Of a stretch of 64,000 nucleotides of DNA, positions 10,787 to 36,631 are shown piece by piece. The number at the start of each line of letters is the position of its first letter. Position 1 is the first letter of the stretch. The stretch is taken from assembly GCA_020060385.1 (NCBI GenBank), contig JAGVAH010000157.1, forward strand, positions 4,586-68,585. Direction: 5' to 3'. A program made the position numbers and the translations under genes. Below the pieces are notes generated by a model. That model was not told the origin of the DNA. It saw only the letters and a program-made list of their open reading frames with translations, and ran no database searches. The stretch comes from Syntrophobacterales bacterium. GTDB taxonomy: Bacteria; Desulfobacterota; Desulfobaccia; Desulfobaccales; 0-14-0-80-60-11.

Positions 10787-10790
10787 ATAT

Positions 10791-12280: not shown

Positions 12281-12304
12281 AAAAAAAAAGGGCCCTGGTG
12301 GGCC
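12281..12304 (-). terminator. Rho-independent terminator (minus strand) after the small lipoprotein gene
   Basis: GGCCC-TGGT-GGGCC stem-loop (12291-12304) followed on the minus strand by a run of nine T (12281-12289). Confidence 0.5.
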
Positions 12305-12413
12305 ATTGCATAAATTCCTGGTCGCCGTTTTTAGTTTATGCAACAAAATAATCTGAGTTATGTTTAATCCACAGTTTTGGGTTTAAAGCTTTTTTTAGGG
12401 GAAATAGTCCTGG

Positions 12414-12641
12414 TCAATCATCCTCCCAGTCTTCCCTAACAATACTTTGGCTTGTGCCTCCAAAGAGATCGTGCTCAATTATCCAGCCACATTTACTGGT
12501 TCTTTGCGAAGTGCTTAGGAAACCTAATTGGTATTTTTTCGGATAACCGGACGTGCAAGCGAGCGTAAGACTGATCGCCAAAATCAATAACAGGGCCAGA
12601 ACAACTAGCCGTCCCCATAACGGTTTCATCCTAGGTCGCAT
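12414..12641 (-). CDS. Small hypothetical lipoprotein
   Basis: Internal ATG 12641 with AAGGAGG 7 nt upstream: MRPRMKPLWGRLVVLALLLILAISLTLAC (signal peptide with lipobox-like LTLAC). Lower GC than its surroundings. No recognisable family. Confidence 0.5.
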   Translation of the reverse strand: MRPRMKPLWGRLVVLALLLILAISLTLACTSGYPKKYQLGFLSTSQRTSKCGWIIEHDLFGGTSQSIVREDWEDD

Positions 12642-12904
12642 TTCTCGGCCTCCTTGGACTGACACAAAGTGAAAAGGGAATCCTGAAGGCAAATCTGTAT
12701 CCAGGCGAGCAGGTAAGTAATTCGAAGTACAATGGTTTTAGCACTTCGGACATCCCGCTACCTTGGCCGACAGGCATTAGGCCGGTGACTTTGCGCTCTC
12801 ACCTTTCGGTAAACTTTGCCCTTTTCGATAGTGTAAAAAGCTTATCGGTACCTTTGCTGAAAACTGAAGAAGTTGTTGCTAGTTGTCCAGCCTGCCCCGC
12901 CTCG

Positions 12905-13275
12905 TGAGGAAAGATAAAATTAACCTGGACTTTTAACCGCCTTTTGCATTAGAACTCCAGAAAAGAGTTGAATGTCCGGTCTACGGCCTGCGGTGCTTGG
13001 GATCGGCTATCAGAGGACACATGATCGGTTTCCTGGAAGGCGAACTCCTGGACGAGAGCCCGGGCCAGGTCCTGGTCAAGGCGGGGGGCGCGGGCTACCG
13101 GCTGCTCATTCCCCGGTCCACCTGCTAGGCCCTGCCCGAGTCTCCGGGCCGCGCTCAGCCTGCAGATTCACCCCCGCATCCAGGACGACGCCCTGCACCT
13201 TGACGGCTTCCACACCCCGGAGGAAAATGACCTCTGCCTCCGGCACCTGAAAATCCCCCGCGTCGGCCCTGGCTG
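12905..13275 (+). repeat. Direct repeat copy 1 (ruvA upstream region plus 5' coding part), left boundary of the ~22-kb insertion
   Basis: Aligns by eye over about 370 bp with 35558-35932, roughly four fifths identical with small indels. Example: tgaggaaagataaaattaacctggacttttaaccgccttttgcattagaactccagaaaagagtt vs tgaggcaggagaaaataaacctggacttggagccggcttttgcattagaaatccagaaaagagtt. Confidence 0.85.
13021..13275 (+). pseudogene. Truncated, inactivated 5' fragment of ruvA
   Basis: ATGATCGGTTTCCTGGAAGGCGAACTCCTGGAC parallels the intact ruvA start at 35676. Codon 36 is TAG (13126-13128) where ruvA has TAC (Tyr36). Indels follow and similarity ends near 13275. Confidence 0.8.
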
Positions 13276-13413
13276 GGTCCCTTAAGGGGCGGCTCCATAC
13301 ACGTGCTCCATACCTTGGGAATCCTGCTCAACCCCAGCCGTTTGTTGAGCTGGCAGCTAAATCCCTGGCGCTCTTCCTGGCCGGCCCCTGGCAGCTAAAT
13401 TTGGCACCGGACC

Positions 13414-13442
13414 TTGCATTTTTGTGAAGACATAATTATAAT
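13414..13442 (+). promoter_or_regulatory. Sigma-70-type promoter candidate for the giant-ORF operon
   Basis: TTGCAT (13414-13419), 17-nt spacer, TATAAT (13437-13442) in an AT-rich patch about 360 nt upstream of the ORF A ATG. Preceded by two direct TGGCAGCTAAAT 12-mers (13351-13362, 13389-13400). Confidence 0.45.
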
Positions 13443-13802
13443 TAACCATATTTCGGTGGACCGTTCCCAACCAACTGACAACTTTTCCTGCAACTGTCCA
13501 ACAAGGAGCTCAAGTGCAAGAGGCCAAAATCCGGTCTGGCAGGCGCTGCAAAAGGTTGGCTCAAAAGGTTGTCTCCTCCGCAAACTTCCGCTTCACTGAT
13601 GCAGCCGGTTTAGTCATCGTCTGACCTGAGCGATAACGGGCCCGGTTACTGCCTGGCCCCCCTTCTCCTTCTCTCCAGCCAGACCATCCAAGCCCAAGCT
13701 TAACCCGCAGCCTGCCCTGAAGGATCGGGGAAAGGGCGGGGAATAAAGCCCAGCGGCGTTTACCTCCTTCCTTGGCATCTTTGACCAGGAGGTTTGACAG
13801 CC

Positions 13803-16800
13803 ATGGCCGAGGGTGGTTCTCCCGGTACCATTTTGGAAGCCTCGATCTCTGGGGTGCCTGCGGATCTGCGCCAGTGGCGCCTTATCAAAGGGGACCCGGA
13901 GGTTTTCGGAGTCTGGCTGGGGGATAGCTTCTATCCCCTGGCCCGGAGGGAGAATCTTGGCCTGGGCTTCCAGGAAGGCCTTCTGGGAGCCGGTTATGCC
14001 GCGGCCTGGAGGGATCGATCGGACTGCCTGGAACACCTGCCGCACCCTTTAGCCGACTTTTTCCGCCGGCAACCGGAGCGCTCCCAATTTTATCTGGTCT
14101 CCCGGAACTTGCCCGGAAATGCTGGACAGCCGGTGCCGTTGTTCACCCTGGCCAAAACGGACAGGGGCCAGGCAGTGGTTCTGGAACTCAATCCGGACTT
14201 CGCAGACCGCCGGGAGATCTATCTGGCCCTGGCTGTTTATAGCCTGGTCCAGGCCAACACCCCTTACCTCCACCACCGCTTCGATGCCCATGGGGATTTC
14301 CAGCGCCTGGGGGCCTTTTCCCAGGTAGAGCGCCACAGCACTGAGATGTCCAGGAAACACCTGGGCCAACGCATCTATTTCGAGGCAGAGGGCTGCACCC
14401 ACTGCCTCAAGTGCGCCGCCTCCTGCAGCGAAATGCAGGTGAGGCTGACCTCCGGGGGCTTAACGGTCCTGGGTCCGGCAGAAGATTATTGTACCGTCTG
14501 CCGCCTCTGCCTGGCGCATTGCCCGTATCTAAAGGATGTGCGTAAAGAAGACCTGACCCCGGACCGCCAGGCTGCACCTGCCGCCCACTTCACCGGGGGC
14601 GCCGCCGTCTATCTGACCCGGGAGGCGGCCCGGGAAGCCCAGGCCTGGTTTCAGGGGTTGGCCGCATCCCCAGGGCGTGGAGGCGATTGGCGGATTTCCC
14701 TGCTTTATCAAGGAGCCTCCTGGCAGGAAGGGGAGCCACCGGGACCGGAAATCCGGCAGTATTCCCTTCAGGAGCAAAGGCCCGGGAGTCCTTACAAACC
14801 TTTGCTGATTACGGCACATATCTCACCCCAGGGGGGGACCGCACCACCCTTGCTGATTCTCCGCTTGCTGAGCCGGGTGGCGGTCTTTCTCACCAGCGCT
14901 GCGGGGGAGATCGAGGCCGAACTGCTGCGAGGCGTAGACTCAATGGGGGTCCTCTACCAGGGGGTGGTGGATGGAGAAAAATTTGGCAGCCCCGGGGACA
15001 TGCCCCTGGCGTCCAAACTCCATCGCCTCCACCGGCTGGCCCCGGACGCGGATTTGGCGGCTTTGGTCACCGCCGGGCAAGTGGATGTGGTGTTGACCCC
15101 GACCCTGGAGGCCTTGCCGGCGCCGGTTTCCTCCTATTTCCTGGAAGCCACCGGCAACCTGGCCCACCTCCTGGCTCCCCAGATCTTTCAGGCCTTCACC
15201 TTCAGCCCGGAGCCTCTCCTCCATGAGATCCGGGAACTCTGTCTGGAGGTTTTTCCCCGCTATCCGCAACTCCTGGCCGCAGAAGCAGAACGGGCCCGGA
15301 CCTACCTGGCCGATTTGCCCCGCTATGGCCCGGAGATCCACGCCCGCTATCGTACCTGGGGCATGGCCCCGGGCCACAGCGCCTGCCCCACCTGCGCGGA
15401 ATTGCAAACCCTGGCGGTGCCCCTCTATATGGCCATGCTCCTCTCCCTGTCCCGGGGGCAGGTTCCCCAGGTGACCTTCACCTGCGAAACCGGGTGCATG
15501 AGCGAGACCCTCAATAAGGTTAAAGAAGTGGCCCAAAAAGTGAAAGGGGGCCGCACCGTGTTTGGGGGTGGCTTCGCGTTCGGGGAAGCCGCGGCCATGT
15601 CCGAGGAGTGGGCCATGGCCCGGGGCGTCTTGCCCCAGGGTCGGCGCTACGTGGTGAGCCAGAGCGGGGATGGCGGCGCGGTCATCGGGCTGCCAGCTTG
15701 GCTCAACGCCCTGCGGCAGCGGTCCTTCCTCATCAAGGATCGGGAGGCCCAGGTACTGCATTTTATCAATGTCACCGATACCCAGGTCTATTCCAACACC
15801 GGGGGAGAGAGTTCGGCCACCTCCATGCTGGGCATGAGCACCCTCACCACCCCCCTGGGGCGCTTCCTGGTGGGCAATCAGCGCATCCAGTGGCAACTCA
15901 TCAACCTGGCCGCGGAATTTCCCGGGGTTCTGGTGGGGAGCGGGCATTCGGCCCATAAGGATCTGATGCAGGAATTCTGGGCGGAAGCCGACCGCCTGGG
16001 GCGTTCCGCTATCCGTTGGGATGTCACCCCCTGTCCGGAAACCGGTAAATTCTTCGGGGAAGATCCGGATCGTTTGGCCCGGATTATGGCCTATGCCGGG
16101 TTCCTCCCGGAGGTGGTATTTGTGGGCCGCTTGCGCAAACGGGTGGCTCCCATCAATCCCCGGGATCGCCACAAGAACTGGCGGGAATGGACCTCGGAGC
16201 CCCAGCCCATTTATTACTGGCTTGCCCAAGATCCCCGTTACCGTCCCTTGATCCGCCGGGACCTGGTGAGCGGCCACTGGGAGCCCATCAATCCCGCAGT
16301 CAGGGCCATCATCGCCCAGTTGGAGAGTTTCCGGGATGGCCTCAATCGTCAGATCGACCTGGAAAACCGCCTGGTCCGGGAGGCGGAGGAATATACCGCC
16401 GAATTTTTCCGGCATCTCCAGGCCGAATGGCAGAGACATCGCTACGTCCCGGAAGAGTTTCCCTATCATTTCCTGTTCAATGACCAGGGGGAACTGAAAC
16501 CTGAGTTCGGCCCGGCCTTGCCCCGGGATTTCCTGGAGGCGGTTTTGGGTCTGGATTACGTGAGGCAGTATGTGGTGGCCCGGGACGAACAGATGACCGG
16601 GGAGGTCCAGACCCTGCAAACTCCGGGTCCGGCTGCACAAGCAATCCCGCCGGACGGCGGCGAAGGGTTACCGCCCCCTGACCCCGTGGTAGCCATGGGG
16701 ACCACGGCTACCAGCTACGAGTCCGTGGCCGCGGCCCGGCAGGCGGAATTCCAGCGCCTGCTGGATCGCCTCCTGGACGACCGGGCCCTGGCCAAGCAGG

Positions 16801-19800
16801 CCCAGATTTCCCAGTATATTTTAGGGAAAGAGTTGGCCAGGGATTTCCAGGCTCAGGGAGGCATCTTTACCCGGGCTCCGGGGAGAGGAGCGGACCTGGC
16901 CCCGGCCCGCCGGGAGTTTCGCGATAGCCTCGCCGCGTTGGGGGAATTTGCCTTGGGCGTGGCCTCCCTGGCCGGGGAACGGGGCATCGCCCTCAACCGT
17001 CTGTTCTCCCAGTATTTCACCGGCAAAGGGGCCTGGGCCGGCATGGCCTGGCAGTTCGGGTCTTCCAAACGGGGCACCCCGGTTTTTTCCGCGACTTTTA
17101 TCTCCCACCGTCCCATCCAGCGCCAGGACGCGCTGTTGCGTTTTCCCTTTTACGTGCTCACCGTCACCAACTACGGGGATTTGAAATCCCAGCCGGATTT
17201 GTTTTACGACCACCTCCACCCCCAGGGTTATCTCATTATCAATACCCCCCGGACCCCGGCCGCCATTCACCAGGAATTGCTGGCCGGCTATGACGACCAC
17301 ACCCGCCAGGGGGTGGCCCGGGCCCAGGATGCGCCCCGGGGCGAGGCCCGGGAAGCGGTGAGCCAATGGTTGTTTGAAGTTCCCTATAACGCCCTGAACC
17401 GGGAGCAGCTGGATCAGGTTACCAAAGTCCTGGCCCTGGCCCAGGCCCGGGTGATCACCACCGACCTGGACGGGATTATGGCCCAGGTGACCGGCAGCAG
17501 CCGGGCGGTTTCCAATCTGGTGGCGGTGGCCCCCATGATGCGGGCCCTGGAGCTTTTGGGCATGCCGGTGAGCTTTGAGGCCGACTTGCCGGCCCTGACC
17601 GCGGGCTTTCCCGGGGCGGTGAAAAAAAATAAGCAGCTGACCGAGCAATATTTGACGGCCATGGGGCGGGCCTATCAGGAGTCCCAGGGATTTAGCGACG
17701 CCCCGCCGCAGCTCCCCCCCCATCCCGGGGGACCGTCCCCGGACCCGGGGGACTATTATCTGGAGATGGGGGGCACCCTGGCGGGCCAGGTCCTGAGCCA
17801 GCTGGCCACCAGGGACCACCCCTTATTTTATATCGGTTTTCCCATCACCCCCGCGGGCAACCCCTTTTATGCCATGGCCCAGGCCTATGCCAACGGCCAC
17901 CCCTATATCATGGTGGACGAAAACAATCCCTCGGAGAAGGTGGCCGCGGAAAAGCTGCTGGGGGTGGCCCGCACCGGCGGCGCCCTGCCGGTGACCTTCA
18001 CCGCCTCCCAGGGTTGGCGGCTCTTTGCGGAAATCATGCCCCAACTGGTGGGGGCTCGCCTCGAATGCCTCTTCATCCTGGCCAAACGGGCCCTGGCCGC
18101 GCCAGCCCTGAACATCGAGGAGAGCCATACGGATTTCATGACCTTCCGGGATGACGGGGCCATTATGCTCTCCCCCAAAGACATCCAGGAATTCGTCCCC
18201 TGCCTCTATCTGGCCCGGTTGCTGACGCATTTTGCCCGGCTGCCGGTGGTGGCCTCCCTGGGGGGCATCACCGATACCCACAAAATCAGCCTGGTCAAGG
18301 TTCCTCCGGACCAAGAGGTCCAGGCCTGGCTGGCCCGGGCCCTGGCGGAGGTGGATTTCCTGGAAGATAAGCTGCTGAATCGCCAGGGGGAGGTGATTGT
18401 CCACGGTCCCAGCGCCACCGGGGAAGTCTATCAGGAAACTCAATCGGCAGTGGAGAAGGCCCATGCCCTGGTGCCTCGGGTCTTCCCGTATGCGGCCCGC
18501 CTGGTGGAGGAATTGACGGGCTACCGCTTCCAGGAACTGGAAGTCGCGGCCACGGCCCCGGGGGAACCCCTGACCACCGGGCTGGTCCTCACCGGCTCTT
18601 TCTATCCCAACGCACAGGAGGCCATTGCCGAACTGGCCCAGGAGGGCTGGGGGGAGCTGGGGGCCATTTCCGTCAGGCTGTTCAATCCCTTTCCGGAAGA
18701 GGCCCTGGCTGAGATATTGTCCGGGGCCAAGCTGGTGACCATCATAGACCGCTCCAACAGTTTCGGCAGCGTGCCGCCTCTGGCCAGCCGGGTGATCACG
18801 GCCCTGGCCCGCGCCCGTAAAGGGCTGCCGCCCCTCTTTCGCGTCCTGGTGGGCGGCCTGGGGGGACGGGAGATCACCGTGCCCGAACTCAAAGAAATCA
18901 TCAAGTTCAGCCATCTGTGCCTGGCGCCCCGGCCCCAGGTAAAGCCGGGGCTCAGGCAGCGCCTCCTGGAGGGGGACCTGTTGCTCCAGGGATTACTGGC
19001 AGAACGGGCGGCCCTGGAAGCCAGGAGTCTGCAGCGGCATACGCGGCTCCCAGCCGCGGCCCGGTCCGAGGCCCAGGCCCCGGGAGCGCTTGCGGCCACC
19101 CGGGAAAGACTGGCCCAGGCCCTCATCCGGGGAGATTACCTCTCCGCCCTGGCCAATTACGGCTCCGTGGAGTTCGTCAATCCCCAGGAAGTTTGGGAGG
19201 AGACCCGGCTCCTCAAGAAGTTGATCATCCGCCTGGAGATGCTGCTGGCCCGGGAACTCATCAGCCAGGGACAGGCCGACTGGCGGGCAGCGGCAACACT
19301 CCTGGAATACGGGGTGCAGCCCGGAGATTTTGCCTTGGCGGTGCGCGGCCTTAATTCCCTGATCACCGCCGCGCCGGCCCCTGCGGCCTGGACTCTTTAT
19401 CGACTGGGTGAAGCCTACGGTCATAAATTCAGGCCCAGGGGCCTGACCTTAAGGGCACCGGTGGGGCCGCCTCCGGCGCCTCTGCCCCCGTCTGCGGCTC
19501 CAGAAATTGAGGAGCCGGCGCCACCGTTGGGCGCGGCCAGGCCCGAAGTTCCCTTTTCCCCCGCGGAGGCGGCTATTTTAGAGAAGGTCATGCGCGCCCT
19601 GATTGGGGAAAGCGCCCAACGGGAAACCCTGCGCAATCCCCTTGACCTGGAGCGGGAGACCCTGGATATCCTGGCCCGTGACCCGGCCTCCCAGCTTTTT
19701 GGCCGGGCCGATGGGGCCATCCGCCGGGCCTATCAGGAGGTGTATACCGGGGTCATCGACCGGACCCTGGCCGAGGGCATCCTGGGGCAACACTATGCCC

Positions 19801-20087
19801 CGGAGCTCAGGGAAATCTTTGCCGGCGAGGGGCTGCGGGCCCTGGAGCTGATGGCCCAGGCCACGGTGGCCTATTTTGCTCGGGGCCATGGGGAAGGGCC
19901 CCCTGACCGGGTAGAAGTGCAGCGACAGGCGGCTGGGGCAGTGGAACGTTACCTCCGGGAAGAGGTTTACCCCCGGTACCGCCGGACGCCGGGGTTTTAC
20001 CATGACTATTACCGGGCCTGGGTGGCGCCGGACCTGAAAGAGGCCATTGTCAGGGAAGTGGCGGCGATTAACTGGAAAACCCCATAA
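13803..20087 (+). CDS. Giant (about 2,095 aa) domain-permuted 2-oxoacid:ferredoxin oxidoreductase-like fusion protein
   Basis: ORF track 13794 (TTG); ATG 13803 is more likely (AGGAGG upstream). Numbering from 13794. Ferredoxin motifs: C201-x2-C-x2-C-x3-C and C233-x2-C-x2-C-x3-CP. PFOR TPP-binding module: ACPTC..TCETGC, SGDGGAVIG..NVTDTQVYSNTGGESSATS, TPCPE. Gamma/POR-like module: FGSSKRGTPVFSATFISHRPIQ. PFOR domain I: IGFPITPAGN, NPSEKVAAE, TFTASQGW, ESHTDFM. PFOR domain II: SVRLFNPFPEE, IIDRSNSFGS. Long unassigned N-terminal, internal and C-terminal stretches. Confidence 0.8.
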   Translation: MAEGGSPGTILEASISGVPADLRQWRLIKGDPEVFGVWLGDSFYPLARRENLGLGFQEGLLGAGYAAAWRDRSDCLEHLPHPLADFFRRQPERSQFYLVSRNLPGNAGQPVPLFTLAKTDRGQAVVLELNPDFADRREIYLALAVYSLVQANTPYLHHRFDAHGDFQRLGAFSQVERHSTEMSRKHLGQRIYFEAEGCTHCLKCAASCSEMQVRLTSGGLTVLGPAEDYCTVCRLCLAHCPYLKDVRKEDLTPDRQAAPAAHFTGGAAVYLTREAAREAQAWFQGLAASPGRGGDWRISLLYQGASWQEGEPPGPEIRQYSLQEQRPGSPYKPLLITAHISPQGGTAPPLLILRLLSRVAVFLTSAAGEIEAELLRGVDSMGVLYQGVVDGEKFGSPGDMPLASKLHRLHRLAPDADLAALVTAGQVDVVLTPTLEALPAPVSSYFLEATGNLAHLLAPQIFQAFTFSPEPLLHEIRELCLEVFPRYPQLLAAEAERARTYLADLPRYGPEIHARYRTWGMAPGHSACPTCAELQTLAVPLYMAMLLSLSRGQVPQVTFTCETGCMSETLNKVKEVAQKVKGGRTVFGGGFAFGEAAAMSEEWAMARGVLPQGRRYVVSQSGDGGAVIGLPAWLNALRQRSFLIKDREAQVLHFINVTDTQVYSNTGGESSATSMLGMSTLTTPLGRFLVGNQRIQWQLINLAAEFPGVLVGSGHSAHKDLMQEFWAEADRLGRSAIRWDVTPCPETGKFFGEDPDRLARIMAYAGFLPEVVFVGRLRKRVAPINPRDRHKNWREWTSEPQPIYYWLAQDPRYRPLIRRDLVSGHWEPINPAVRAIIAQLESFRDGLNRQIDLENRLVREAEEYTAEFFRHLQAEWQRHRYVPEEFPYHFLFNDQGELKPEFGPALPRDFLEAVLGLDYVRQYVVARDEQMTGEVQTLQTPGPAAQAIPPDGGEGLPPPDPVVAMGTTATSYESVAAARQAEFQRLLDRLLDDRALAKQAQISQYILGKELARDFQAQGGIFTRAPGRGADLAPARREFRDSLAALGEFALGVASLAGERGIALNRLFSQYFTGKGAWAGMAWQFGSSKRGTPVFSATFISHRPIQRQDALLRFPFYVLTVTNYGDLKSQPDLFYDHLHPQGYLIINTPRTPAAIHQELLAGYDDHTRQGVARAQDAPRGEAREAVSQWLFEVPYNALNREQLDQVTKVLALAQARVITTDLDGIMAQVTGSSRAVSNLVAVAPMMRALELLGMPVSFEADLPALTAGFPGAVKKNKQLTEQYLTAMGRAYQESQGFSDAPPQLPPHPGGPSPDPGDYYLEMGGTLAGQVLSQLATRDHPLFYIGFPITPAGNPFYAMAQAYANGHPYIMVDENNPSEKVAAEKLLGVARTGGALPVTFTASQGWRLFAEIMPQLVGARLECLFILAKRALAAPALNIEESHTDFMTFRDDGAIMLSPKDIQEFVPCLYLARLLTHFARLPVVASLGGITDTHKISLVKVPPDQEVQAWLARALAEVDFLEDKLLNRQGEVIVHGPSATGEVYQETQSAVEKAHALVPRVFPYAARLVEELTGYRFQELEVAATAPGEPLTTGLVLTGSFYPNAQEAIAELAQEGWGELGAISVRLFNPFPEEALAEILSGAKLVTIIDRSNSFGSVPPLASRVITALARARKGLPPLFRVLVGGLGGREITVPELKEIIKFSHLCLAPRPQVKPGLRQRLLEGDLLLQGLLAERAALEARSLQRHTRLPAAARSEAQAPGALAATRERLAQALIRGDYLSALANYGSVEFVNPQEVWEETRLLKKLIIRLEMLLARELISQGQADWRAAATLLEYGVQPGDFALAVRGLNSLITAAPAPAAWTLYRLGEAYGHKFRPRGLTLRAPVGPPPAPLPPSAAPEIEEPAPPLGAARPEVPFSPAEAAILEKVMRALIGESAQRETLRNPLDLERETLDILARDPASQLFGRADGAIRRAYQEVYTGVIDRTLAEGILGQHYAPELREIFAGEGLRALELMAQATVAYFARGHGEGPPDRVEVQRQAAGAVERYLREEVYPRYRRTPGFYHDYYRAWVAPDLKEAIVREVAAINWKTP

Positions 20088-20090
20088 GGT

Positions 20091-24941: not shown

Positions 24942-25000
24942 GGGCGTCGTCCCGGAGGCGGCGGTCCTTGCCGGCCTGGGCCCTGGTTTAAGGAGCGCCC

Positions 25001-28000: not shown

Positions 28001-28936
28001 CGGGGCGGCGCCTGGTTCCGGGACCGGGGATACGGGGCCAGCGGCGGCAGCAAGATCTTTTCCGTGGCCGGGATTGTCAACCACACCGGCCTGGTGGAGG
28101 TGCGGTTCGGCCGCACCTTCAGGGACGTGCTGCAGATCGCCGGGGGCGTCCAGGAGGGGAAAAGGCTCGCTGGCGTCCAGATCGGCGGTCCCTCGGGGGC
28201 CATCCTCTCTTTGACCGGAGTCCGGGCCTACCTCCTGGATGCCCCCCTGGATTTCGATGTCTTCAACCGGGTGGGGGCCATGCTAGGTTCCGGCGGCCTG
28301 GTTTTCCTGGGGGAGGACGATGACGTGGTGCGGTTGGCCCGTCATTTTACCTCTTGGCTGGCCGCGGAATCCTGCGGCCAATGCCCCAGTTGCCTGAACG
28401 GCCTCGTCTCCCTGGGGGCCACCCTGGACCGCATCCTCAAAGGGGAGGGCGCCAGCCTGGATATCCACACCCTGTGGGGCAAAGCCGATATCATCCGGGC
28501 CGGCTCCCGGTGCGGATTGGGGCAGACAGCCCCCAACCCCGTGACCAGTTCCCTCAGATTCTTCCCGGTTTCCTATCTCCATTACCTTTTGGATAACCCC
28601 CGGATCGATGCCCCGGAGCTTTTCCTCAGCCTGGAGGCCTTACATCTCCTTACCCGGGGGGAGACCGCGCTCTCCACCGCCGCGCCTGGGCGCGTCTCCT
28701 TCTACCTGAAAAAGGGTTTGATCCGGTTCATCTTTGAGGAATTGACCAAACTGGACCGCTTTCGGCCGGGGACGGACAACCGCCCGGGCCGTTTCTTGAA
28801 ATTGCTCAACCTTACCCCGAACCAGGTGGGTTGGCGGGGCGTGCAGATGGAATATTCCCGGGAAACCATGGCCCAACATCCTTACCTCATGGTGGGGGCC
28901 TCAGGGGCAGGGGCAAAGGCGGAGTCCCGGGCTTAA
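25001..28936 (+). CDS. Giant (1,311 aa) NuoE-NuoF fusion flavoprotein (NAD(P)H/FMN/[2Fe-2S]/[4Fe-4S] module) with a ~480-aa unknown N-terminal region
   Basis: AAGGAG 8 nt upstream of the ATG. NuoE-type motif: C501-x4-C506..C541-x3-C545 (VCKGTACFLRG..CFGTCHLAP). NuoF-type motifs: NPESIDSYLEKGGYQALKKVL, LRGRGGAGFPTGVKW, NGDEGDPGAFMDR, GAGAFVAGEKRA, SLBB-like VEVRFGRTFRDVLQIAGG, and N3 cluster ESC1125GQCPSC-x39-C1171GLGQTAPNP. Confidence 0.85.
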   Translation: MGAQILEMRLSPGCQEEAAGEYDLRPDLTPEAAAKELPPAARRVLAPVAAAFAALHRGLVEDLPLTGIRKVRLFQNLGAAARLARSQEPGAATAEVALAALGAGPQWVSLLADLLRAAALYPGVRDTRLPRRFAPLARMVAPLRHLLEKIRERVQRQPRFASQIMGPLEADDSQRLVDPWGQTRLLLQRFLCRQDWRERDVLHLMLDFLQGSPNLYGERLLNLWFSLKRLQDEEPAAYTRMVAALINEGRAYLGELPRWRHLCGMGETGGTGAWEGADTFRVIQGMAGLLGVPPEDLPALSAATGAAGIDWDTLKAAALQTGGGFSPLKPLERASLFLAAELFPENLGHRAFLRFLLENEEPYRQLLATCYSSLETQEAQLARILTAFNGHPANIEKRVHYRQSEAAQLLRVFFLRPDPVEAIIDRERKKDIYYRLPGLPGQALLPQVLHECQSIFQYLTQEALKRVAAGLGVDPAEIGRVIASYKEFTVDPTGQHLLYVCKGTACFLRGQPHLSQALATRLGVEEGRVSPEGVQFFERDCFGTCHLAPVIKVGHTFVAALRPEVIPPLIGKLLKGRSFANRSDFFKAVRDSLAEEDQVVLSHSCPVQGACGLEVTPEQLEGLAINGLGEIRAWPEKKVLGTLAERSYSFSFMDPSGSRQYGTLITDADDFLLGVVNVPDPRVQKGLARTLRPRVVLKDHYVHLEGRPQPLGAYHSNSIALGKPDGTYGSLVFGEENLQSPPEETCGLTPGFQRPVPPEFFRRQDRLLLGFVEGVNPESIDSYLEKGGYQALKKVLGYGQPEKSWPPATIVQEIMAANLRGRGGAGFPTGVKWEAMLQARPESRAGDEVDLPLKLMVANGDEGDPGAFMDRTLIQERPHQVLEGMLIAALATGCRYGVIYVRKEYEDAVQRLENAVFEARRYGFLGRQVMEVADFDFDVEIRLGAGAFVAGEKRAIMRAIAGKPAEPDLQAVSNVKGGLWGKPTLLNNVETFANVPLIISRGGAWFRDRGYGASGGSKIFSVAGIVNHTGLVEVRFGRTFRDVLQIAGGVQEGKRLAGVQIGGPSGAILSLTGVRAYLLDAPLDFDVFNRVGAMLGSGGLVFLGEDDDVVRLARHFTSWLAAESCGQCPSCLNGLVSLGATLDRILKGEGASLDIHTLWGKADIIRAGSRCGLGQTAPNPVTSSLRFFPVSYLHYLLDNPRIDAPELFLSLEALHLLTRGETALSTAAPGRVSFYLKKGLIRFIFEELTKLDRFRPGTDNRPGRFLKLLNLTPNQVGWRGVQMEYSRETMAQHPYLMVGASGAGAKAESRA

Positions 28937-29230
28937 GACCCTGGTATTCCCAATTGGTCCCTTGGCCCCGAAATTGCCGGCTGGTTGAAACTCCGGGAAT
29001 GAGGCGGCCCGCATCTTGGGCGGTAAGTCCGGGGAGGGCCAGGGGCCGCCAGGAGGCTTGCCAATTTCAGGAGTTGGCCCGACGCCAGAACGCCCTGCCA
29101 AACTGGGTGGAACTCTCCCCAGCTGCCGCCCCTCCCGGCTTTTCTGCGACCGGATGTGCAAAATGCGGGCGACGCCGCCCGCAGACCAGGGGGCCTCCTC
29201 TGGAGACTGGCGCTGCCATAATTATAGCAT

Positions 29231-29317
29231 TTGCCAAAAGTTCTTTCCTCTTATCCCCTCTCCCCCCAGCGGGGGGAGAGGGTTAGGGTTAGGGGGGGCG
29301 GAAAAAACTTTTGGCAA
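29231..29317. repeat. Nested palindromic REP-like element
   Basis: Outer inverted repeat TTGCCAAAAGTT (29231-29242) / AACTTTTGGCAA (29306-29317) encloses the hairpin cccctctcccccc-agc-ggggggagaggg (29255-29282) followed by ttagggttaggggggg. Confidence 0.7.
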
Positions 29318-29479
29318 CCAGTATATGAGGTACAGAGGTGTCTTAATTTCAGGACTGTCTCTCCGGCAAATCCTTTCCAGAAAAGACTGGCCCTGCCTGG
29401 CAGACATCGAAATTTACCGCGGCTCCCAAAACTTCCCATCTCCCAACCATATCAACGCCTCTTTGGTTCCCCTTGCTCC

Positions 29480-30382
29480 TCAAATAAGCAGCTTTTCCAG
29501 CTCTTCAAGATTGAATGAGGTCTCGTGGGCCTGTGACATCCAGCGGGCACAGCGATTGGTATTCAAGGGGATGCCCACGGGGGCAATGCCGGTGCGGATG
29601 CACAGCCTCATGCCCCTGGCCAGCTCCGGGATGCAGGCGATGCCCAGGGCGCCGATGCTGGGATGTTCTCGTTTTAGCTTTTTAAAGAGCCCCTCTTGCT
29701 CGATTTCTATAGAAATATAGGGGTCGATGCCGTATTTCTGCAGCAGCACACTCCCCAGGCGAATGAAGCAGTCCTCGGTGCACCCCTGGCACACCGCCTC
29801 GATATCCCCCTTTTCGGAGCGGCACTCCGGCCTATAGTCACGCAGGCAATGGGCGATGAGCGCGAATTTGTAGGCCGCGCGTTGGAACTCTTCTTTATAT
29901 ATTCGGTTCACTAATTCGATCTCCAGCATGTACAGGTGGTACTGCTCCTCGGTGGTGGTCAGGGTGCTATCCGCCCTTTTGGCCAGGGGCAAGCTCTGTA
30001 AGTGTTCCCCAACCTTCCGGGTATAGGTGGACAATGATTCTCTCAACGTCCTCTGAATAAATCGGAGCGTCTGCCGTTCGGCCTTCGTGGTTTTCAAGCC
30101 CCGCAGCCAGTTCTTTTTTTCTGCCTCTTGTATCAGGTCCAAAAGTCTTTTCTCGCCGGGGCAGCGCTGGAGAAATATATCTGCCAGGCGCTTGATGGTG
30201 GCGTAATAACGTTCAGGATCATCGCCCTCAGCAAACAGGGAGTAAGTCTTTCCTGGGACGCTCGTATATGGCCTCTCCTGATTTGGCAATGCCGTGGAAG
30301 CTCCCCACAAGTTTAGATATTCCAATGATATCATATCATTTAGCCGCGGCGACGATAATTGCCGGCTCCGGACGGATAGCAA
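29480..30382 (-). CDS. DUF116-like cysteine-rich protein
   Basis: 300 aa. The C-terminal half, ALIAHCLRDYRPECRSEKGDIEAVCQGCTEDCFIRLG..GALGIACIPELARGMRLCIRTGIAPVGIPLNTNRCARW, matches my memory of the DUF116 (PF01976) Cys pattern. The N-terminal half is unassigned. Confidence 0.5.
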   Translation of the reverse strand: MLSVRSRQLSSPRLNDMISLEYLNLWGASTALPNQERPYTSVPGKTYSLFAEGDDPERYYATIKRLADIFLQRCPGEKRLLDLIQEAEKKNWLRGLKTTKAERQTLRFIQRTLRESLSTYTRKVGEHLQSLPLAKRADSTLTTTEEQYHLYMLEIELVNRIYKEEFQRAAYKFALIAHCLRDYRPECRSEKGDIEAVCQGCTEDCFIRLGSVLLQKYGIDPYISIEIEQEGLFKKLKREHPSIGALGIACIPELARGMRLCIRTGIAPVGIPLNTNRCARWMSQAHETSFNLEELEKLLI

Positions 30383-30600
30383 CCCAAGACCTCTTAAGCC
30401 TCAGGCTTTTCTTTCCCAGGCCCGATGGGTCATAATTCCACCACTGCCCGGGGATTATTGGGGGTTGACGCCTCAGCCCCCGCCAAACATCTCCTGGTTC
30501 TTTCTTTATGTAAAAAATATCAGGCCACATTGTTTCAATTTTTAAAGACCTTATGTTAATCTGAGGCAGTTTGGATAACCCCTTGAAAAATTGGAGAAGA

Positions 30601-31851
30601 ATGATGTCTACTGCCTCAGGGAAGGAATTCCTGCGCCCCGTGCGGCCTCTCCTCCTGGCTTGCCTGGCCCTTTTGCTGCTCCTCGCCCAAGGGTGCATGG
30701 CCCTAAAGGTGCGCCAGGCGTTGCCGGAGAACCTGCTGGACCAGGCCCAGGTGGCCGATTTGCCCGGCATTCGGGCCTGGGGCGACGTTGCCAGCAAGAG
30801 CCTGCAGCAGAGCGCCATCGAGTCCATCCGCCAGGAGATGGCCGCCAATCACGGCAAGCTCGAACCTGAAGCCAATTTCCTGGCCCTGTCCGGCGGCGGC
30901 GGCGACGGAGCCTTCGGCGCCGGCATCCTCTGCGGCTGGACCGAGGCCGGCAACCGGCCCCGTTTCAAGCTGGTGACCGGCATCAGCACCGGGGCCCTCA
31001 TTGCGCCCTTCGCCTTCCTGGGGCCGAAATATGACGCCAGGCTGAAAGAGGCCTACACCACCATTTCCGACAAGGATATCTATACGGTTCCCAGCGTGGT
31101 GAAGCTGGTAATTAATCTGGGCAGGATTGAAGCGGCGGCCAGCACCAAGCCGTTGGCCGAACTGCTAGAGCGGCTCATCGATGACCAAATGATTCAAGAA
31201 ATCGCGGTCGAACACCGCAAGGGCAGGCGCCTGCTGGTGGGCACCACCCAGCTCGATGCCCAGCGCCAGGTGATCTGGAACATGGGCGCCATCGCCGCCA
31301 GCGGCCACCCTGATGCCCCCAAGCTCTTCCGCCAGATTCTCCGGGCCTCGGCCTCCATCCCGGTGGCCTTCAACCCGGTTTATATCAAAGTGCGGGCCGG
31401 CGGCCGGGAATACGACGAAATGCACGTGGATGGGGGAGTGCGGGCGGAGGTGATGCTCTATGAGACTGCCCTCGATCTCTTTACCGCCAGGAAGAAGGTT
31501 TTGCAGGCGGAGCATGTTCACGACCGCCCCCGCAAGCTGTACATCATCCGCAATGCCCAAGTTTCCCCCGAATTTAAAACTATTAAACCCCATATAGCGG
31601 ACATCGGCACCCGGGCCATCGGCAGCCTCACCAAATACCAGGGGGTGGGGGATTTGTACCGTATCTACGTACTGGCCCAGCGGGACGGGATTGACTATAA
31701 CCTGGCCTACATCCCCGTGGATTTTCACCCCCAGCGGACCTCGGAATTTGACACCAAGTACATGAACGAGGAGTTTAACCTGGCCTTCAACCTGGCGCGC
31801 TCCGGCTATAAGTGGAGCAAGTACCCGCCGGGCTTCAGTCCTTCTCCCTAG
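30601..31851 (+). CDS. Secreted/lipid-anchored patatin-like phospholipase
   Basis: Start at ATG 30601 (GGAGAAGA upstream). Signal peptide ending LLLLAQGC. Oxyanion motif LSGGGGDGAFGAG, nucleophile elbow GISTG (GxSxG), catalytic Asp in HVDGGV. Confidence 0.85.
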   Translation: MMSTASGKEFLRPVRPLLLACLALLLLLAQGCMALKVRQALPENLLDQAQVADLPGIRAWGDVASKSLQQSAIESIRQEMAANHGKLEPEANFLALSGGGGDGAFGAGILCGWTEAGNRPRFKLVTGISTGALIAPFAFLGPKYDARLKEAYTTISDKDIYTVPSVVKLVINLGRIEAAASTKPLAELLERLIDDQMIQEIAVEHRKGRRLLVGTTQLDAQRQVIWNMGAIAASGHPDAPKLFRQILRASASIPVAFNPVYIKVRAGGREYDEMHVDGGVRAEVMLYETALDLFTARKKVLQAEHVHDRPRKLYIIRNAQVSPEFKTIKPHIADIGTRAIGSLTKYQGVGDLYRIYVLAQRDGIDYNLAYIPVDFHPQRTSEFDTKYMNEEFNLAFNLARSGYKWSKYPPGFSPSP

Positions 31852-31883
31852 TAGCCCTGACCGCGTCGACCGGGAGATAAAAC

Positions 31884-33227
31884 ATGGGCAACCCGTCTGC
31901 TCTCGCTTCCTTCGAACAGTTGGTGTCCCACGTCCGGGAATATTTTTTTCATCAGTTTCTCTCCTGGGCCACCCCGTCCCAGATTGTGGTCATTGGCTGC
32001 GCCCTGCTGCTGGCCCGCCAATTAAGCGGGGCCATGCGCGCCTGGCTGACCCGCCAGCAGGTGCAACACGCCGCGCATCCGGAAGCCTTGGCCGACCTGG
32101 CCATACTCCAGAATTTCGTCAAGGTTATTGACGCCTTCAGCGCCTTTATCCTGGTGGGGATGGCCTATGGTATCGCGGGCCATTTCCACTGGCCCCGGAA
32201 TGAACTCTTCGCCGCGGGCAATATTTTGGTTGCCCTGACTCTGGTGCGATTGTTCACCGATGAGATGAAAAACCGCTTTTGGGCCAAAGTCCTGGCCATC
32301 GCTATTTGGGCTTATGCCCTACTCCTGGCCTCTTTCGGGCTGTTGCAGCTCACCGAGTTCTGGTTCCGTTTGTTGCAGAACATTAATTTTCAGATCGGGC
32401 AGGTGCGCATTTCCCTCTTATATATGCAGCGGGCCTTTTTCCTGTTGTTGGCTCTCTATTGGATGTCGAAAAATCTGCGGGTACTCTCACATTTCTGGCT
32501 GCTAGCCAAATCGGGGTTGTCTTCTGCGACCCAAATCCTGTTGTACCGGCTCGGCGGCATTTTTCTCTTTTGCGCCTGTGTGGTCATCGTCTTACATTAC
32601 CTGGGGCTCGATCTCACCATCTTCGCCCTGTTCAGCGGCGCCCTGGGGTTGGGTCTCGGTTTCGGCCTGCAAAAAATCTTTGCCAACCTGGTGAGCGGCT
32701 TCATCCTCCTGGCGGACAAGTCCGTCAAGCCCGGCGATGTGATCCAGTTAAAGGACACTTACGGCTGGATTAATTTCTTGGGAAGCCGCTATTGCTCCGT
32801 GGTCACCCGGGACGGCATCGAGCATCTCATCCCCAACGAAAACCTGATCACCGGCGAGGTGATCAACTGGTCATACAGTCAAAACCTGGTCCGTATAAGG
32901 GTGCCCGTGGGCGTCGCCTACGGCGCCGACTTGGAGAAAGCCAGGGAATTGGTATTGGCGGCCGCCGGGGATACGCCCCGGGTCCTCAAAGACCCCAAGC
33001 CTGCCTGCCTCTTAACCGGCTTTGGAGATAGCGCCGTCAACCTGGAGGCCCGGGTGTGGCTCAACGACCCCCAAAACGGCATCGGCTCGGTCAAGAGCGA
33101 CCTCTTCTGGGGCATCTGGCGCCGGTTTAAGGAACAGGGTATAGAAATACCCTTCCCCCAGCGGGACCTGCATCTCAAATCCCTCCACCCAGGAGGGGTG
33201 TGGACGGGGCCAGAGAAAGGACCTTAA
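31884..33227 (+). CDS. Mechanosensitive ion channel, MscS family
   Basis: 447 aa, multi-TM N-terminus. Conserved pore/beta-domain block FANLVSGFILLADKSVKPGDVIQL..GWINFLGSRYCSVVTRDGIEHLIPNENLITGEVINWS. Confidence 0.85.
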   Translation: MGNPSALASFEQLVSHVREYFFHQFLSWATPSQIVVIGCALLLARQLSGAMRAWLTRQQVQHAAHPEALADLAILQNFVKVIDAFSAFILVGMAYGIAGHFHWPRNELFAAGNILVALTLVRLFTDEMKNRFWAKVLAIAIWAYALLLASFGLLQLTEFWFRLLQNINFQIGQVRISLLYMQRAFFLLLALYWMSKNLRVLSHFWLLAKSGLSSATQILLYRLGGIFLFCACVVIVLHYLGLDLTIFALFSGALGLGLGFGLQKIFANLVSGFILLADKSVKPGDVIQLKDTYGWINFLGSRYCSVVTRDGIEHLIPNENLITGEVINWSYSQNLVRIRVPVGVAYGADLEKARELVLAAAGDTPRVLKDPKPACLLTGFGDSAVNLEARVWLNDPQNGIGSVKSDLFWGIWRRFKEQGIEIPFPQRDLHLKSLHPGGVWTGPEKGP

Positions 33228-33389
33228 GGAGTTATCAGACTGCAATTCTACTACTCCTTGGAATATTGGAATCACGGACCTCAAGCTGGATGTCTGATGG
33301 GAGGATCAGGAGTTTAAGGCTGCAGCAAGAGAATTTCGGACCCGGCGAGGGCCGCCCGGGTAATTATTCAGGTGAAAGGGAGTAAGGGC

Positions 33390-33914
33390 ATGTTCAAAGA
33401 AGAACGCAGCGAAACCCATTTTGAGTGGAGTATGCTGGGGGATATCGAAGAAGGTCGTCCGAATCTCGGCCCCATGGTGCACGTGGCCGTGTATCGTCTG
33501 ATGCAATTCACCCTGCGTGACGTCCTCATCCGGGATTTCGGGGTCGAAAATGCTGACCGCATCTTTTTTGAGGCCGGCAAGAAAGCAGGGGAAGAGTACT
33601 GCAACAATCTGCTTACCGAAAAGGATGATTTGACCAGCTTTTTTGCCGATATCCAGCGCACCATGAAGGAGCTGGGCATCGGCATCTTCCGGGTCGAATC
33701 CGCGGATTACGAAAAGGGCTCTTTCGTGGTGACGGTGGCGGAAGATCTTGATTGTTCGGGCATCCCCGTTTGCGCGGAGGAAGTGTGCATCTATGATGAA
33801 GGGTTTATTGCCGGCCTGCTGCTCGCCTACACCGGCAAAGACTTTGCGGTCAAAGAGGTGGATTGCTGGGGCTCCGGGGGGCGGGTCTGCCGCTTCACCG
33901 TAGTCCCACAATAA
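33390..33914 (+). CDS. V4R-domain protein (small-molecule-binding sensor)
   Basis: Start at ATG 33390 (GGGAG 7 nt upstream). C-terminal V4R signature EEVCIYDEGFIAGLLLAYTGKDFAVKEVDCWGSGGRVCRFTVVP. 9-nt gap to the cyclase gene. Confidence 0.7.
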   Translation: MFKEERSETHFEWSMLGDIEEGRPNLGPMVHVAVYRLMQFTLRDVLIRDFGVENADRIFFEAGKKAGEEYCNNLLTEKDDLTSFFADIQRTMKELGIGIFRVESADYEKGSFVVTVAEDLDCSGIPVCAEEVCIYDEGFIAGLLLAYTGKDFAVKEVDCWGSGGRVCRFTVVPQ

Positions 33915-33923
33915 GGTTGAGAG

Positions 33924-35366
33924 ATGATCTCGGTTGAAGAAGAACTAATTGACCGCATCACCGCCGCGTTTCATTACCTCCGCACCGGTAAAGTGCCCGC
34001 GCCCCTGGCCATTCCGGAGGAGCTCCCGGACAACGAGGTCCGCCAGCTCATTACCTATGTGAACCGCTTCCTCATCGAATTCGCCAACTTCGCCAAGACC
34101 ATGGAGCAGATTGCCCAGGGTGAGCTGAATACCGGCACTTTACTAGGCCGCATGGCCGTAGTCCATTCCTTTAAGGCCCTCCAATCCAACCTGCGGCACC
34201 TCACCTGGAAGACCCAGCAAGTCGCGGCCGGGGACCTGGAGCAGCAAGTCGATTTCATGGGAGATTTTTCCACTGCCTTCAACAGCATGACCCGGCAACT
34301 CAAGGAGTCCCGGGAGCAACTCGTTGATCTCAATAAGCAGCTGGAGCGCCGTAATAGGTTTATCAGGGAAACCTTCGGCCGTTACACCAGCGAGGACATC
34401 GTGGGGGTGCTTCTGGATATGCCGGAAGGCCTCAAACTGGGTGGGGAGAAAAGGGAGGTGACCCTGCTGTGGTCGGACTTGCGCGGTTTTACCGCCCTCT
34501 CCGAACGCCTTGAGCCCACCACCGTGGTGGCTTTGTTGAACCATTACCTTTCGGTGATGATCGAGATCATTCAACGGCACGGGGGCACCATCGACGATAT
34601 CATCGGCGATGCCATCCTGGTGCTCTTTGGCGCGCCCTTGCCCCTGGCAGATGCGGCCCCCCGGGCCGTGGGCTGCGCCTTGGAAATGCAAAAGACCATG
34701 GGGGAAGTAAATGCCCATAACTTCCGGAATGGCTGGCCCGAAATCGAAATGGGGATCGCCTTGCACACCGGAGAGGTGGTGTTGGGCAACATCGGCTCCA
34801 CCAAGCGATCCAAATACAGTGTCATCGGGCAAACGGTCAACTTGACCTCCCGTATAGAAAGCTACACGGTGGGAGGCCAGGTCCTGGTCTCCCCCACCTT
34901 GATCAGCGCGGCCAACCCCGGTCTTATCCTGGGGGACGAAGTCAAGGTGCACGCCAAGGGCATGCGCAGGGCCATCAAATGTCAGGAGTTGCTGGGGCAC
35001 CATGACTTCCCCGAGTTAATCCTGGAGAAGGAGGAAACGGTCTTAACCGCCCTGGCCCACCCTTTGCCTTGTCACTACTTGGTGCTCGCCGGCAAACAGC
35101 TCCAGGGGCCAATGCTGCCCGCGGCTTTGGTCAGCCTCTCCCCGCGGCGGGGAATAGTGGAGGCAGGTGGCCGGTTGCCGCCCCGTAGCAATATAATGCT
35201 GCGCTTGGCGGGGGAAGGCGGCGGGAAAGAGGCAGCCGATTTTTACGCCACGGTGATCCAGCCCCTTGAGGAGTCAAGCTGGCGTTATCTGATCCATTTC
35301 ACCTCCATCCCCCCGGCGGTGCGGGAGCGTTTGCAGCTCCTGGCGGAAAGCGCCAAGGGTCCTTGA
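33924..35366 (+). CDS. Class III adenylate/guanylate cyclase with HAMP-like linker and unknown C-terminal domain
   Basis: 480 aa. Cyclase core: VTLLWSDLRGFTALSERL, GGTIDDIIGDAILVLFGAP, IALHTGEVVLGNIGSTKRSKYSVIGQTVNLTSRIES. Preceded by AAGDLEQQVDFMGDFSTAFNSMTRQLKESREQL. Confidence 0.85.
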   Translation: MISVEEELIDRITAAFHYLRTGKVPAPLAIPEELPDNEVRQLITYVNRFLIEFANFAKTMEQIAQGELNTGTLLGRMAVVHSFKALQSNLRHLTWKTQQVAAGDLEQQVDFMGDFSTAFNSMTRQLKESREQLVDLNKQLERRNRFIRETFGRYTSEDIVGVLLDMPEGLKLGGEKREVTLLWSDLRGFTALSERLEPTTVVALLNHYLSVMIEIIQRHGGTIDDIIGDAILVLFGAPLPLADAAPRAVGCALEMQKTMGEVNAHNFRNGWPEIEMGIALHTGEVVLGNIGSTKRSKYSVIGQTVNLTSRIESYTVGGQVLVSPTLISAANPGLILGDEVKVHAKGMRRAIKCQELLGHHDFPELILEKEETVLTALAHPLPCHYLVLAGKQLQGPMLPAALVSLSPRRGIVEAGGRLPPRSNIMLRLAGEGGGKEAADFYATVIQPLEESSWRYLIHFTSIPPAVRERLQLLAESAKGP

Positions 35367-35557
35367 ACCATGGAAGGTCAAGAGGCCCAGAAACAGAGAG
35401 ACAGGGAAAAGGAAATAAAACCCCGTGCCTGCTCAAAAGGCCAGGACACGATATCTGTTATATGTCCATTATTTCATCAGCAAAATTAGGTTAGTATTCC
35501 ATCTGCTTGGATTGAATTTTTTTTAAAAGATACTCCCTCCCCTTTCTGTCCCCCCCA

Positions 35558-35932
35558 TGAGGCAGGAGAAAATAAACCTGGACTTGGAGCCGGCTTTTGC
35601 ATTAGAAATCCAGAAAAGAGTTTTCTGTCCGGTCCGGGAACTTTTCTGCCCCGGATCGGTTGATAGAGGGTCTGCATGATCGGCTTTTTGGAAGGGGAAC
35701 TCCTGGACAAGACCCCGGGCCAGGTCCTGGTCAAGGTGGGGGGCGTGGGCTACCGGGTGCTCATTCCCCTGTCCACCTTCTACGCCCTGCCCGAGCCCCC
35801 GGCCGCGGTCCGCCTGCAGATCCACACCCGCATCCAGGACGACGCGCTGCACCTTTACGGCTTTTACACCCCGGAAGAAAAAGACCTCTTCCTCAAGCTC
35901 CTGAACATCCCCCGCATCGGCCCGGGCCTGGC
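35558..35932 (+). repeat. Direct repeat copy 2 (upstream region plus 5' part of intact ruvA), right boundary of the insertion
   Basis: See 12905-13275. This copy is continuous with a full-length ruvA reading frame. Confidence 0.85.
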
Positions 35933-36257
35933 CCTGAAGATCCTGAGCGGCATCTCCCCCCAGGAGTTCGAGGAAGCCATGTCCTTGAGCGATTCCCGGC
36001 GCCTGGCCAATATCCCCGGCATCGGCAAAAAGAGCGCGGACCGCATCCTCCTGGAGTTGAAAGGCAAGGTGATCATCGCGCCCCGGCCCCGGCCCGGAGT
36101 GGCCGGGGACCGCCCCTACCAGGACGCCCTCTCCGCGCTCCTGAACCTGGGCTACCCCAAGAACGTGGCGGAAAAGGCCCTGGACCAGGCCCGCTCCCAG
36201 GGCGCGGCCTCCCTGGAAGACCTCCTGCGCCAGAGCCTCAAATGGCTGGCGAGATGA
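35676..36257 (+). CDS. ruvA: Holliday junction DNA helicase subunit RuvA
   Basis: 193 aa: MIGFLEGELLDKTPGQVLVKVGGVGYRVLIP (OB domain) and two HhH motifs (LLNIPRIGPGLALKILS, LANIPGIGKKSADRILLEL). Confidence 0.92.
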   Translation: MIGFLEGELLDKTPGQVLVKVGGVGYRVLIPLSTFYALPEPPAAVRLQIHTRIQDDALHLYGFYTPEEKDLFLKLLNIPRIGPGLALKILSGISPQEFEEAMSLSDSRRLANIPGIGKKSADRILLELKGKVIIAPRPRPGVAGDRPYQDALSALLNLGYPKNVAEKALDQARSQGAASLEDLLRQSLKWLAR

Positions 36258-36262
36258 AAAGT

Positions 36263-36315
36263 AGTCAGTGATCAGTGGCCAGTGGCCAGTGGCCAGTTGT
36301 CAGTTGTCAATGGCC
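36263..36315. repeat. CAGTGGC/CAGTTGT tandem heptamer array (unpaired arm)
   Basis: agtcagtgatcagtggccagtggccagtggccagttgtcagttgtcaatggcc, starting 6 nt after the ruvA stop. Confidence 0.75.
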
Positions 36316-36368
36316 CATATCTCCTTCCCCAAACCCTTACTTTCAACTCTTTAATGTGGGAGGATTTT

Positions 36369-36587: not shown

Positions 36588-36631
36588 CCCTCCTATAGAA
36601 CCAATTTGATACCTCTGCGAAAGTATTGGAT

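Follow-up and report, generated by a model that had tools for sequence, protein, structure and literature searches.

A partial, decayed duplication of ruvA brackets a lineage-specific insertion between ruvC and ruvA in a Desulfobaccales genome

How did some 22 kb of DNA come to lie between ruvC and ruvA, enclosed by two unequal copies of the start of ruvA? The question is raised by a 64,000-nucleotide stretch (hereafter the window) of a Syntrophobacterales bacterium, placed in the Desulfobaccales by GTDB (assembly GCA_020060385.1, contig JAGVAH010000157.1, positions 4,586 to 68,585). A first-pass annotation of the window, made from its letters without database searches, took the repeats for the footprint of site-specific integration into the 5' end of ruvA. 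Our analysis shows that the block is an insertion specific to this lineage, into a hypervariable ruvC-ruvA spacer. We consider it probable that the event was an old, integrase-independent recombination, which brought in ~22.3 kb of ordinary chromosomal genes.

The two copies of the ruvA 5' region

The left copy (copy A) is a dead duplicate, and the right copy (copy B) is the start of the functional gene. In the following list, L001 denotes the ruvC locus of MAG058 (GCA_040757175.1), a metagenome-assembled genome (MAG) that is the nearest relative of the window, with a RuvC 95% identical.

10935-11684, plus strand: yebC (Pfam Transcrip_reg/TACO1), left conserved flank
11681-12160, plus strand: ruvC (Pfam RuvC), left conserved flank
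12892-13286, plus strand: copy A, dead duplicate; leader at 12892-13021, codons 1 to ~88 at 13022-13286
35546-35939, plus strand: copy B, functional ruvA leader and first ~88 codons; coding part 93% identical to L001
35676-36257, plus strand: intact ruvA, 193 amino acids, with RuvA_N, HHH_5 and RuvA_C; start of the right conserved flank

Local alignment of the copies gives 330 identical columns of 401 (82%), with 13 gap columns. The annotation had described direct repeats of ~370 bp (12905-13275), about four fifths identical by eye; both statements hold, with the edges refined to 12892-13286. It had also allowed that the likeness might be no better than chance, and against this stands an alignment score of 430, compared with 20.3±2.3 for shuffled sequence. 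The repeat, ~395 bp long, comprises the ruvA leader (~130 bp) and ~88 codons, and homology of the copies possibly goes on, faintly, to ~13296. Its period from start to start is 22,653-22,655 bp, with 22,259 bp between the copies, and the final arrangement is leader and truncated ruvA', insert, leader and intact ruvA. Neither terminal inverted repeats nor further repeats were found around the block.

In copy A, TAG replaces Tyr36 (TGCTAG versus TTCTAC), one base pair is inserted and 7 bp are deleted, and the copy ends at about codon 88-92. The stop codon and indels had already led the left copy to be called a dead fragment, and the substitution pattern agrees. Over 257 alignable coding positions, copy A carries 26 unique substitutions, distributed 9/10/7 over the codon positions, and this even spread indicates that it evolves neutrally, as a pseudogene. 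The unique changes number 6 in copy B and 10 in L001, and 12 of these 16 fall at third positions. In a neighbor-joining tree, copy A, copy B and L001 form a clade with 98% bootstrap support, within which copies A and B pair at 59% and copy A and L001 at 32%. The copy A branch, at ~10%, is similar to the per-branch neutral divergence between the window and MAG058 (ruvA third-position/four-fold identity ~83-90%). Clade support and branch length together imply a duplicate of local origin, about as old as the split from MAG058. As judged from these alignments, copy A came from the ruvA of its own lineage or of one closely related to it, and arose near the time of the split. A distant donor for copy A is ruled out by the tree. 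The annotation's suggestion that the event is old is thus upheld, with the decay of copy A lasting about as long as the separation of the lineage from MAG058.

The same observations bear on whether the structure could be an assembly chimera. The source is a metagenome or MAG, and no second contig shows the left junction. However, an assembler could not be misled by repeats that are only 82% identical and share no run of more than 23 bp, and copy A is genuinely decayed, in a neutral pattern. In addition, the right junction is 100% identical in a second public contig, L015, from another Joint Genome Institute (JGI) data set, and synteny with MAG058 places both flanks in the same organism. We regard a chimera as extremely improbable.

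The ruvC-ruvA spacer and the inserted genes

A RuvC scan of species-representative genomes yielded ten loci, mostly from Desulfobacca-like Thermodesulfobacteriota MAGs; the exact RuvC sequence of the window gave no record when looked up, probably owing to a different start codon. Five of these, all from Desulfobaccales (L001, L003, L004, L006 and L010), have a ruvC-ruvA gap of only 0.4-1.6 kb, followed by a methylase gene and PEPCK, compared with a ruvC-ruvA distance of 23.5 kb in the window. MAG058 is collinear with the window for ~10 kb on each side, L001 2-10474 corresponding to window 1678-12154 and L001 11872-20474 to window 35676-44313; a tblastx comparison of the loci with the window, otherwise noisy, agrees with this collinearity. 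Along the left flank, nucleotide identity to L001 is 91%, as far as 12154. The proposal that related genomes would have an empty site is thereby supported, and the state of the window is the derived one, a lineage-specific insertion.

The contents of the spacer differ from relative to relative. In MAG058 (L001 10474-11872) it holds an open reading frame (ORF) of 393 amino acids, with a GC content of 42%; L003 has ORFs of 115 and 267 amino acids, L004 one of 335, and L006 and L010 one each of ~104. In L002 the spacer (10474-19288) holds 8.8 kb of unrelated cargo, comprising an RHS fragment, two radical-SAM/SPASM genes and an ABC exporter, and resembles a locus for ribosomally synthesized and post-translationally modified peptides (RiPP-like). 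Since the content differs in every relative, the interval is a hypervariable hotspot. All seven relatives differ in their cargo here, and a second ruvA fragment was found in none of them, so the footprint does not recur. The annotation had named, as an observation that would tell against it, relatives with the same genes at this site but without any repeat; the relatives carry different cargo.

These loci also argue against the block and its repeats being ancestral, and lost in relatives by recombination between the direct repeats. Such loss would be mechanistically easy, since fresh direct repeats of 0.4 kb delete readily and leave a clean empty site, and the age of copy A, close to the split, is compatible with loss in MAG058 alone. 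However, six relatives (RuvC 82-95% identical) are without the block, each with other cargo and no repeat, and deeper relatives hold the patatin to V4R-cyclase genes elsewhere, as MAG058 does patatin-MscS. Ancestral presence is highly improbable on this evidence.

Between the copies lie the following features, as assigned by Pfam; the assignments agree with the annotation's own list of genes between ruvC and ruvA (redox operon, DUF116, patatin, MscS, V4R and cyclase).

13287-13793, plus strand: non-coding stretch from copy A to G1, containing at some point the left junction of the insert
13794-28936, plus strand: giant redox operon, G1, G2 and G3
13794-20087, plus strand: G1, 2097 amino acids, POR/PFOR domains
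20091-24941, plus strand: G2, 1616 amino acids, FeS domain
25001-28936, plus strand: G3, 1311 amino acids, NuoE/NuoF-like
29480-30382, minus strand: DUF116 family gene (PF01976, E 6.5e-15)
30571-31851, plus strand: patatin gene
31884-33227, plus strand: MscS gene
33372-33914, plus strand: V4R gene
33924-35366, plus strand: HAMP-adenylate/guanylate cyclase gene
35367-35545, plus strand: right-junction stretch; homology to the cyclase-downstream region of L012 ends at 35400, and native ruvA-leader homology to L004 begins at 35527

In composition the block resembles its host, as had been noted. Tetranucleotide correlations between block and flanks are 0.86-0.94, compared with 0.88-0.95 between one flank and the other, and the GC content is somewhat higher in the giant operon (63-65%) than in the flanks (55-60%).

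The genes are also at home in the clade. The cyclase has thousands of homologs at 70-85% identity across Desulfobaccales, including Desulfobacca acetoxidans DSM 11109; V4R and cyclase form a fixed pair, and the order patatin, MscS, V4R-cyclase, interspersed with a few extra genes, is met again elsewhere in the chromosomes of L012, L040 and L041/L042, in no case adjacent to ruvA. The stretch from patatin to cyclase is an ancestral Desulfobaccales gene neighborhood. In MAG058, patatin-MscS is found on a different contig, flanked by ydjC and an AP endonuclease gene. About two dozen relatives have the trio G1-G2-G3, with G3 at 62-87% identity and with different neighbors each time, such as HdrA/MvhD and NiFe-hydrogenase genes in L043 or phoH and acetyl-CoA hydrolase in L044. 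The 22 kb thus joins at least three neighborhoods that are separate in relatives, namely G1-G3, DUF116, and patatin to cyclase. The whole 22-kb unit was not seen elsewhere, and plasmid searches returned only distant NuoE/F-domain matches for G3 and nothing for 12161-13794, a segment comprising the spacer, copy A and the DNA as far as G1.

The route of insertion

Site-specific integration makes predictions that can be compared with this structure. The annotation itself had found no integrase, recombinase or transfer genes. Pfam scans of the large ORFs agree, in that no integrase, recombinase or transposase is present in the 64-kb window; nor did Pfam detect a recombinase remnant or pseudogene in six frames of 13287-13796, three forward frames of 28937-29482 or one frame of 12161-12900. 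The identical, att-like core that alignment of the repeats had been expected to expose is likewise lacking. Identity between the copies is unbroken for at most 23 bp (from 13059), the next longest run being 19 bp (from 13173), and both runs lie in mid-repeat. Mismatches placed at random at the same identity would leave a longest run of 24.2±5.9 bp. A short core could have been erased by ~10% neutral decay.

The idea that an element had supplied a replacement 5' end for ruvA fares no better. Inside the repeat, intact ruvA shares 92.4% identity with that of MAG058, and beyond it 94.0%. Third-position differences number 15/88 inside versus 10/105 outside (p=0.14, not significant), a mild trend that recurs against every relative. 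There is no step in divergence at the repeat boundary, and thus no sign of a foreign ruvA 5' end. With no recombinase, no core, host-like cargo and a unit that does not recur, the proposed site-specific integration into the ruvA 5' end is not supported.

This leaves the possibility of a relic, in which a site-specific island or prophage entered at the ruvA 5' end carrying a replacement end, and subsequently lost its integrase and transfer genes by deletion. A partial target duplication around DNA absent from relatives is the topology expected of such an element, and the age of the event leaves time for genes to have been lost. However, copy A, of the same age, is still 82% recognizable, so a relic of ~1 kb should show unless cleanly deleted, and no integrase pseudogene is seen. 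The lack of an identical core and of a divergence step weighs the same way, as does cargo made up of host-like clade core genes, syntenic with chromosomal neighborhoods of relatives. The unit is not found elsewhere, and other cargo at the hotspot is not accompanied by a ruvA fragment. We therefore think such a relic unlikely. It is very unlikely, in our estimate, that the ruvA leader and 5' region are the attachment site of an unrecognized integration system that moves large metabolic blocks, the giant G1-G3 operon included, into the ruvC-ruvA hotspot of Desulfobaccales, with its recombinase acting in trans or cleanly lost and the ruvA fragment as its attL.

The left edge of copy A carries further information. 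Immediately left of the repeat, at 35527-35545, copy B has a further 19 leader bases, 18 of them in common with L004, that are lacking from copy A. With 19 bp more native leader in copy B, the left edge of copy A adjoins other DNA, a cassette that bears a c-di-GMP-I riboswitch. A simple target duplication by staggered cuts is excluded by the same 19 bp. The features between ruvC and copy A are as follows.

12164-12244, plus strand: semi-conserved stretch 3' of ruvC; by blastn, similarity to L004 and L002 extends as far as 12243-12244, where homology to relatives ends
12245-12891, minus strand: lineage-unique spacer cassette of riboswitch, small ORF and hairpin
12830-12745, minus strand: c-di-GMP-I riboswitch (Rfam RF01051, 56 bits, E 1.6e-10), directly left of copy A
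~12641-12414, minus strand: small ORF with a signal/lipoprotein-like N terminus, into which the riboswitch reads
12304-12291, minus strand: terminator-like hairpin and T-run (terminator scan), 3' of the small ORF

None of the related loci fetched contains a homolog of the cassette (12245-12891).

We infer that the duplication arose by homologous or illegitimate recombination and not through a site-specific recombinase. The simplest route would be a Campbell-type single crossover with a circular DNA in which a truncated ruvA 5' segment adjoined the 22 kb. An equivalent outcome would follow from a homologous anchor in ruvA combined with an illegitimate join at about ruvA codon 90. In either case the donor would be the same species or a very close one. 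The truncated copy, having no function, would then decay, and the intact copy would keep its own leader, probably with its promoter, so that ruvA would still be expressed. Insertion by recombination is expected to leave a duplication of 0.1-1 kb with one truncated copy, and the repeat, with copy A truncated, measures 395 bp. It also calls for two copies from the same or a very close genome, with enough homology for RecA, in agreement with the clade at 98% bootstrap.

A second way to the same structure would take two steps, beginning with a small tandem duplication of the ruvA leader and 5' segment (or duplication of the whole gene, later truncated), followed by one or more insertions or rearrangements between the copies and a cassette exchange to the left of copy A. 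Its appeal lies in the block being a mosaic of neighborhoods that are separate in relatives, in the spacer being a proven site of repeated cargo turnover, and in copy A being weakly sister to copy B (59% bootstrap). However, more events are needed, and the lack of the 19-bp native leader in copy A means that an extra replacement on its left side must be assumed. The sequence does not separate the two-step from the single-event model, and we rate two steps as rather unlikely.

Several points weigh against an old insertion by integrase-independent recombination. The left junction (ruvC, copy A, G1) is known only from the contig of the window. The route is deduced from the final structure. With at least three neighborhoods joined, there may have been more than one event, of which the repeat marks one. 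Finally, the block patatin and MscS genes (30697-33227 versus L036) are more diverged from MAG058 than the flanks are. Their four-fold-site identities are 74.7% and 74.4%, respectively, compared with 78-93% (pooled 84%) for 13 flank genes, and the block is lower at p=3e-5 in the pooled comparison. This difference hints at a donor slightly outside the pair formed by the window and MAG058. Protein comparisons leave the picture of the donor mixed: MscS is 76% identical to that of MAG058, and the MAG058 patatin is one of the two closest known, P0122 being the closest at 90%, so patatin keeps MAG058 among the two nearest while the four-fold sites say more diverged.

Surrounding features and comparison with known systems

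The ruvA leader contains a conserved element, CCTGGACTT-N7-CTTTTGCATTAGAAnTCCAGAAAAGAGTT, with CTGGA...TCCAG inverted arms, at 12924-12969 and 35577-35622. Upstream of ruvA it is found only in the window (in both copies), L002 (19208-19234) and L004 (~11950-12000). Short A-rich tandem repeats (AAAACG or GACCGAA) stand just before the ruvA ATG in L001, L003 and L010 instead. The conserved leader blocks are possibly a promoter or operator. A sigma-70 scan called no promoter in them, Rfam gave no RNA element in the duplicated leader at E≤1, and its fold z-scores (-1.6 to +0.6) are not significant.

At the margins of the block, homologs of 13287-13793 and 35401-35526 are absent from all loci fetched. 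The first of these two stretches contains CTGGCAGCTAAAT twice, at 13350 and 13388, followed at 13402-13418, ~380 bp upstream of G1, by the sigma-54-like TGGCAC-N6-TTGCA. We do not claim a sigma-54 promoter here, as its spacer exceeds the norm by one base. Pfam leaves the bulk of G1 and G2 without assignment. Between G3 and the DUF116 gene lies a near-perfect palindrome (29231-29317; 18-nucleotide arms, 94% complementary, 51-nucleotide loop), which matches L003 19656-19699 at 87% and may be a small repeated or terminator element.

Downstream, the order ruvA, DNA methylase, PEPCK is the same here and in relatives. Of the widely conserved string yebC-ruvC-ruvA(-ruvB) invoked by the annotation, the first three genes are present, but ruvB does not follow ruvA in this clade. 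After ruvA come a 101-amino acid ORF (orf101) and an N6/N4 DNA methylase gene (36282-38114). The methylase is 68% identical to that of MAG058 at the amino acid level, compared with ~90-97% for flanking genes, and this divergence suggests a second variable spot. The remaining window is plainly chromosomal, with flagellar export genes, rlmE, PEPCK, cbiQ and glycogen/trehalose genes. The GC content falls to 0.46 at 44000-46000, over a 328-amino acid ORF (44659-45645, minus strand) without a Pfam match, adjoining an SLT transglycosylase gene.

Among known systems, some prophages and islands, such as e14 and phage 21 in icd, integrate into protein-coding genes and carry a replacement gene end, with an encoded integrase, an identical att core and foreign cargo. 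The window resembles them in its partial target duplicate around DNA absent from relatives and in the intact target gene. In contrast, the integrase, att core and foreign cargo that characterize them were looked for here and not found. For annotation the locus is a warning that a partial target-gene duplication around an insert does not by itself justify calling the insert an integrative element.

Gene-turnover hotspots that lie between conserved core genes of chromosomes have reportedly been described by Oliveira et al. in 2017. The ruvC-ruvA interval is like these in holding different cargo in each genome between conserved collinear flanks, and it can be marked as a gene-turnover hotspot in Desulfobaccales. 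The cargo of such hotspots is usually accessory or mobile, whereas here clade-wide, housekeeping-like genes have been relocated from elsewhere.

Homology-facilitated illegitimate recombination (de Vries & Wackernagel 2002; Prudhomme et al. 2002; Meier & Wackernagel 2003) is cited here through PMC5361080, which explains displaced gene fragments in type VI secretion system (T6SS) effector and Rhs arrays by a displacement model of an anchor and an illegitimate join. In this process a conserved-gene anchor and an illegitimate join trap non-homologous DNA and can leave orphan fragments beside it, as in the window; in contrast, the classical cases delete recipient DNA and trap short inserts.

A further parallel is Campbell integration. 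In E. coli, single crossovers of circles bearing a shortened lacZ left lacZ duplications of 109-950 bp beside the insert, and such crossover events were commoner than true homology-facilitated illegitimate recombination (PMC3240628). Both there and here, a target duplication of a few hundred base pairs surrounds the insert, one copy is truncated, and neither a site-specific recombinase nor a defined core is involved. The E. coli cases are plasmid integrations, whereas the event in the window is natural and old, involves 22 kb of chromosomal genes and has no known donor or circle. It offers a clean, datable natural case of how large core metabolic blocks, here including the 15-kb giant redox operon, can be relocated without mobile machinery in an uncultured sulfate-reducer lineage. 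Considered beside these systems, the structure belongs to a familiar class, that of scars left by recombination at a hotspot of gene turnover, and is otherwise an ordinary rearrangement scar.

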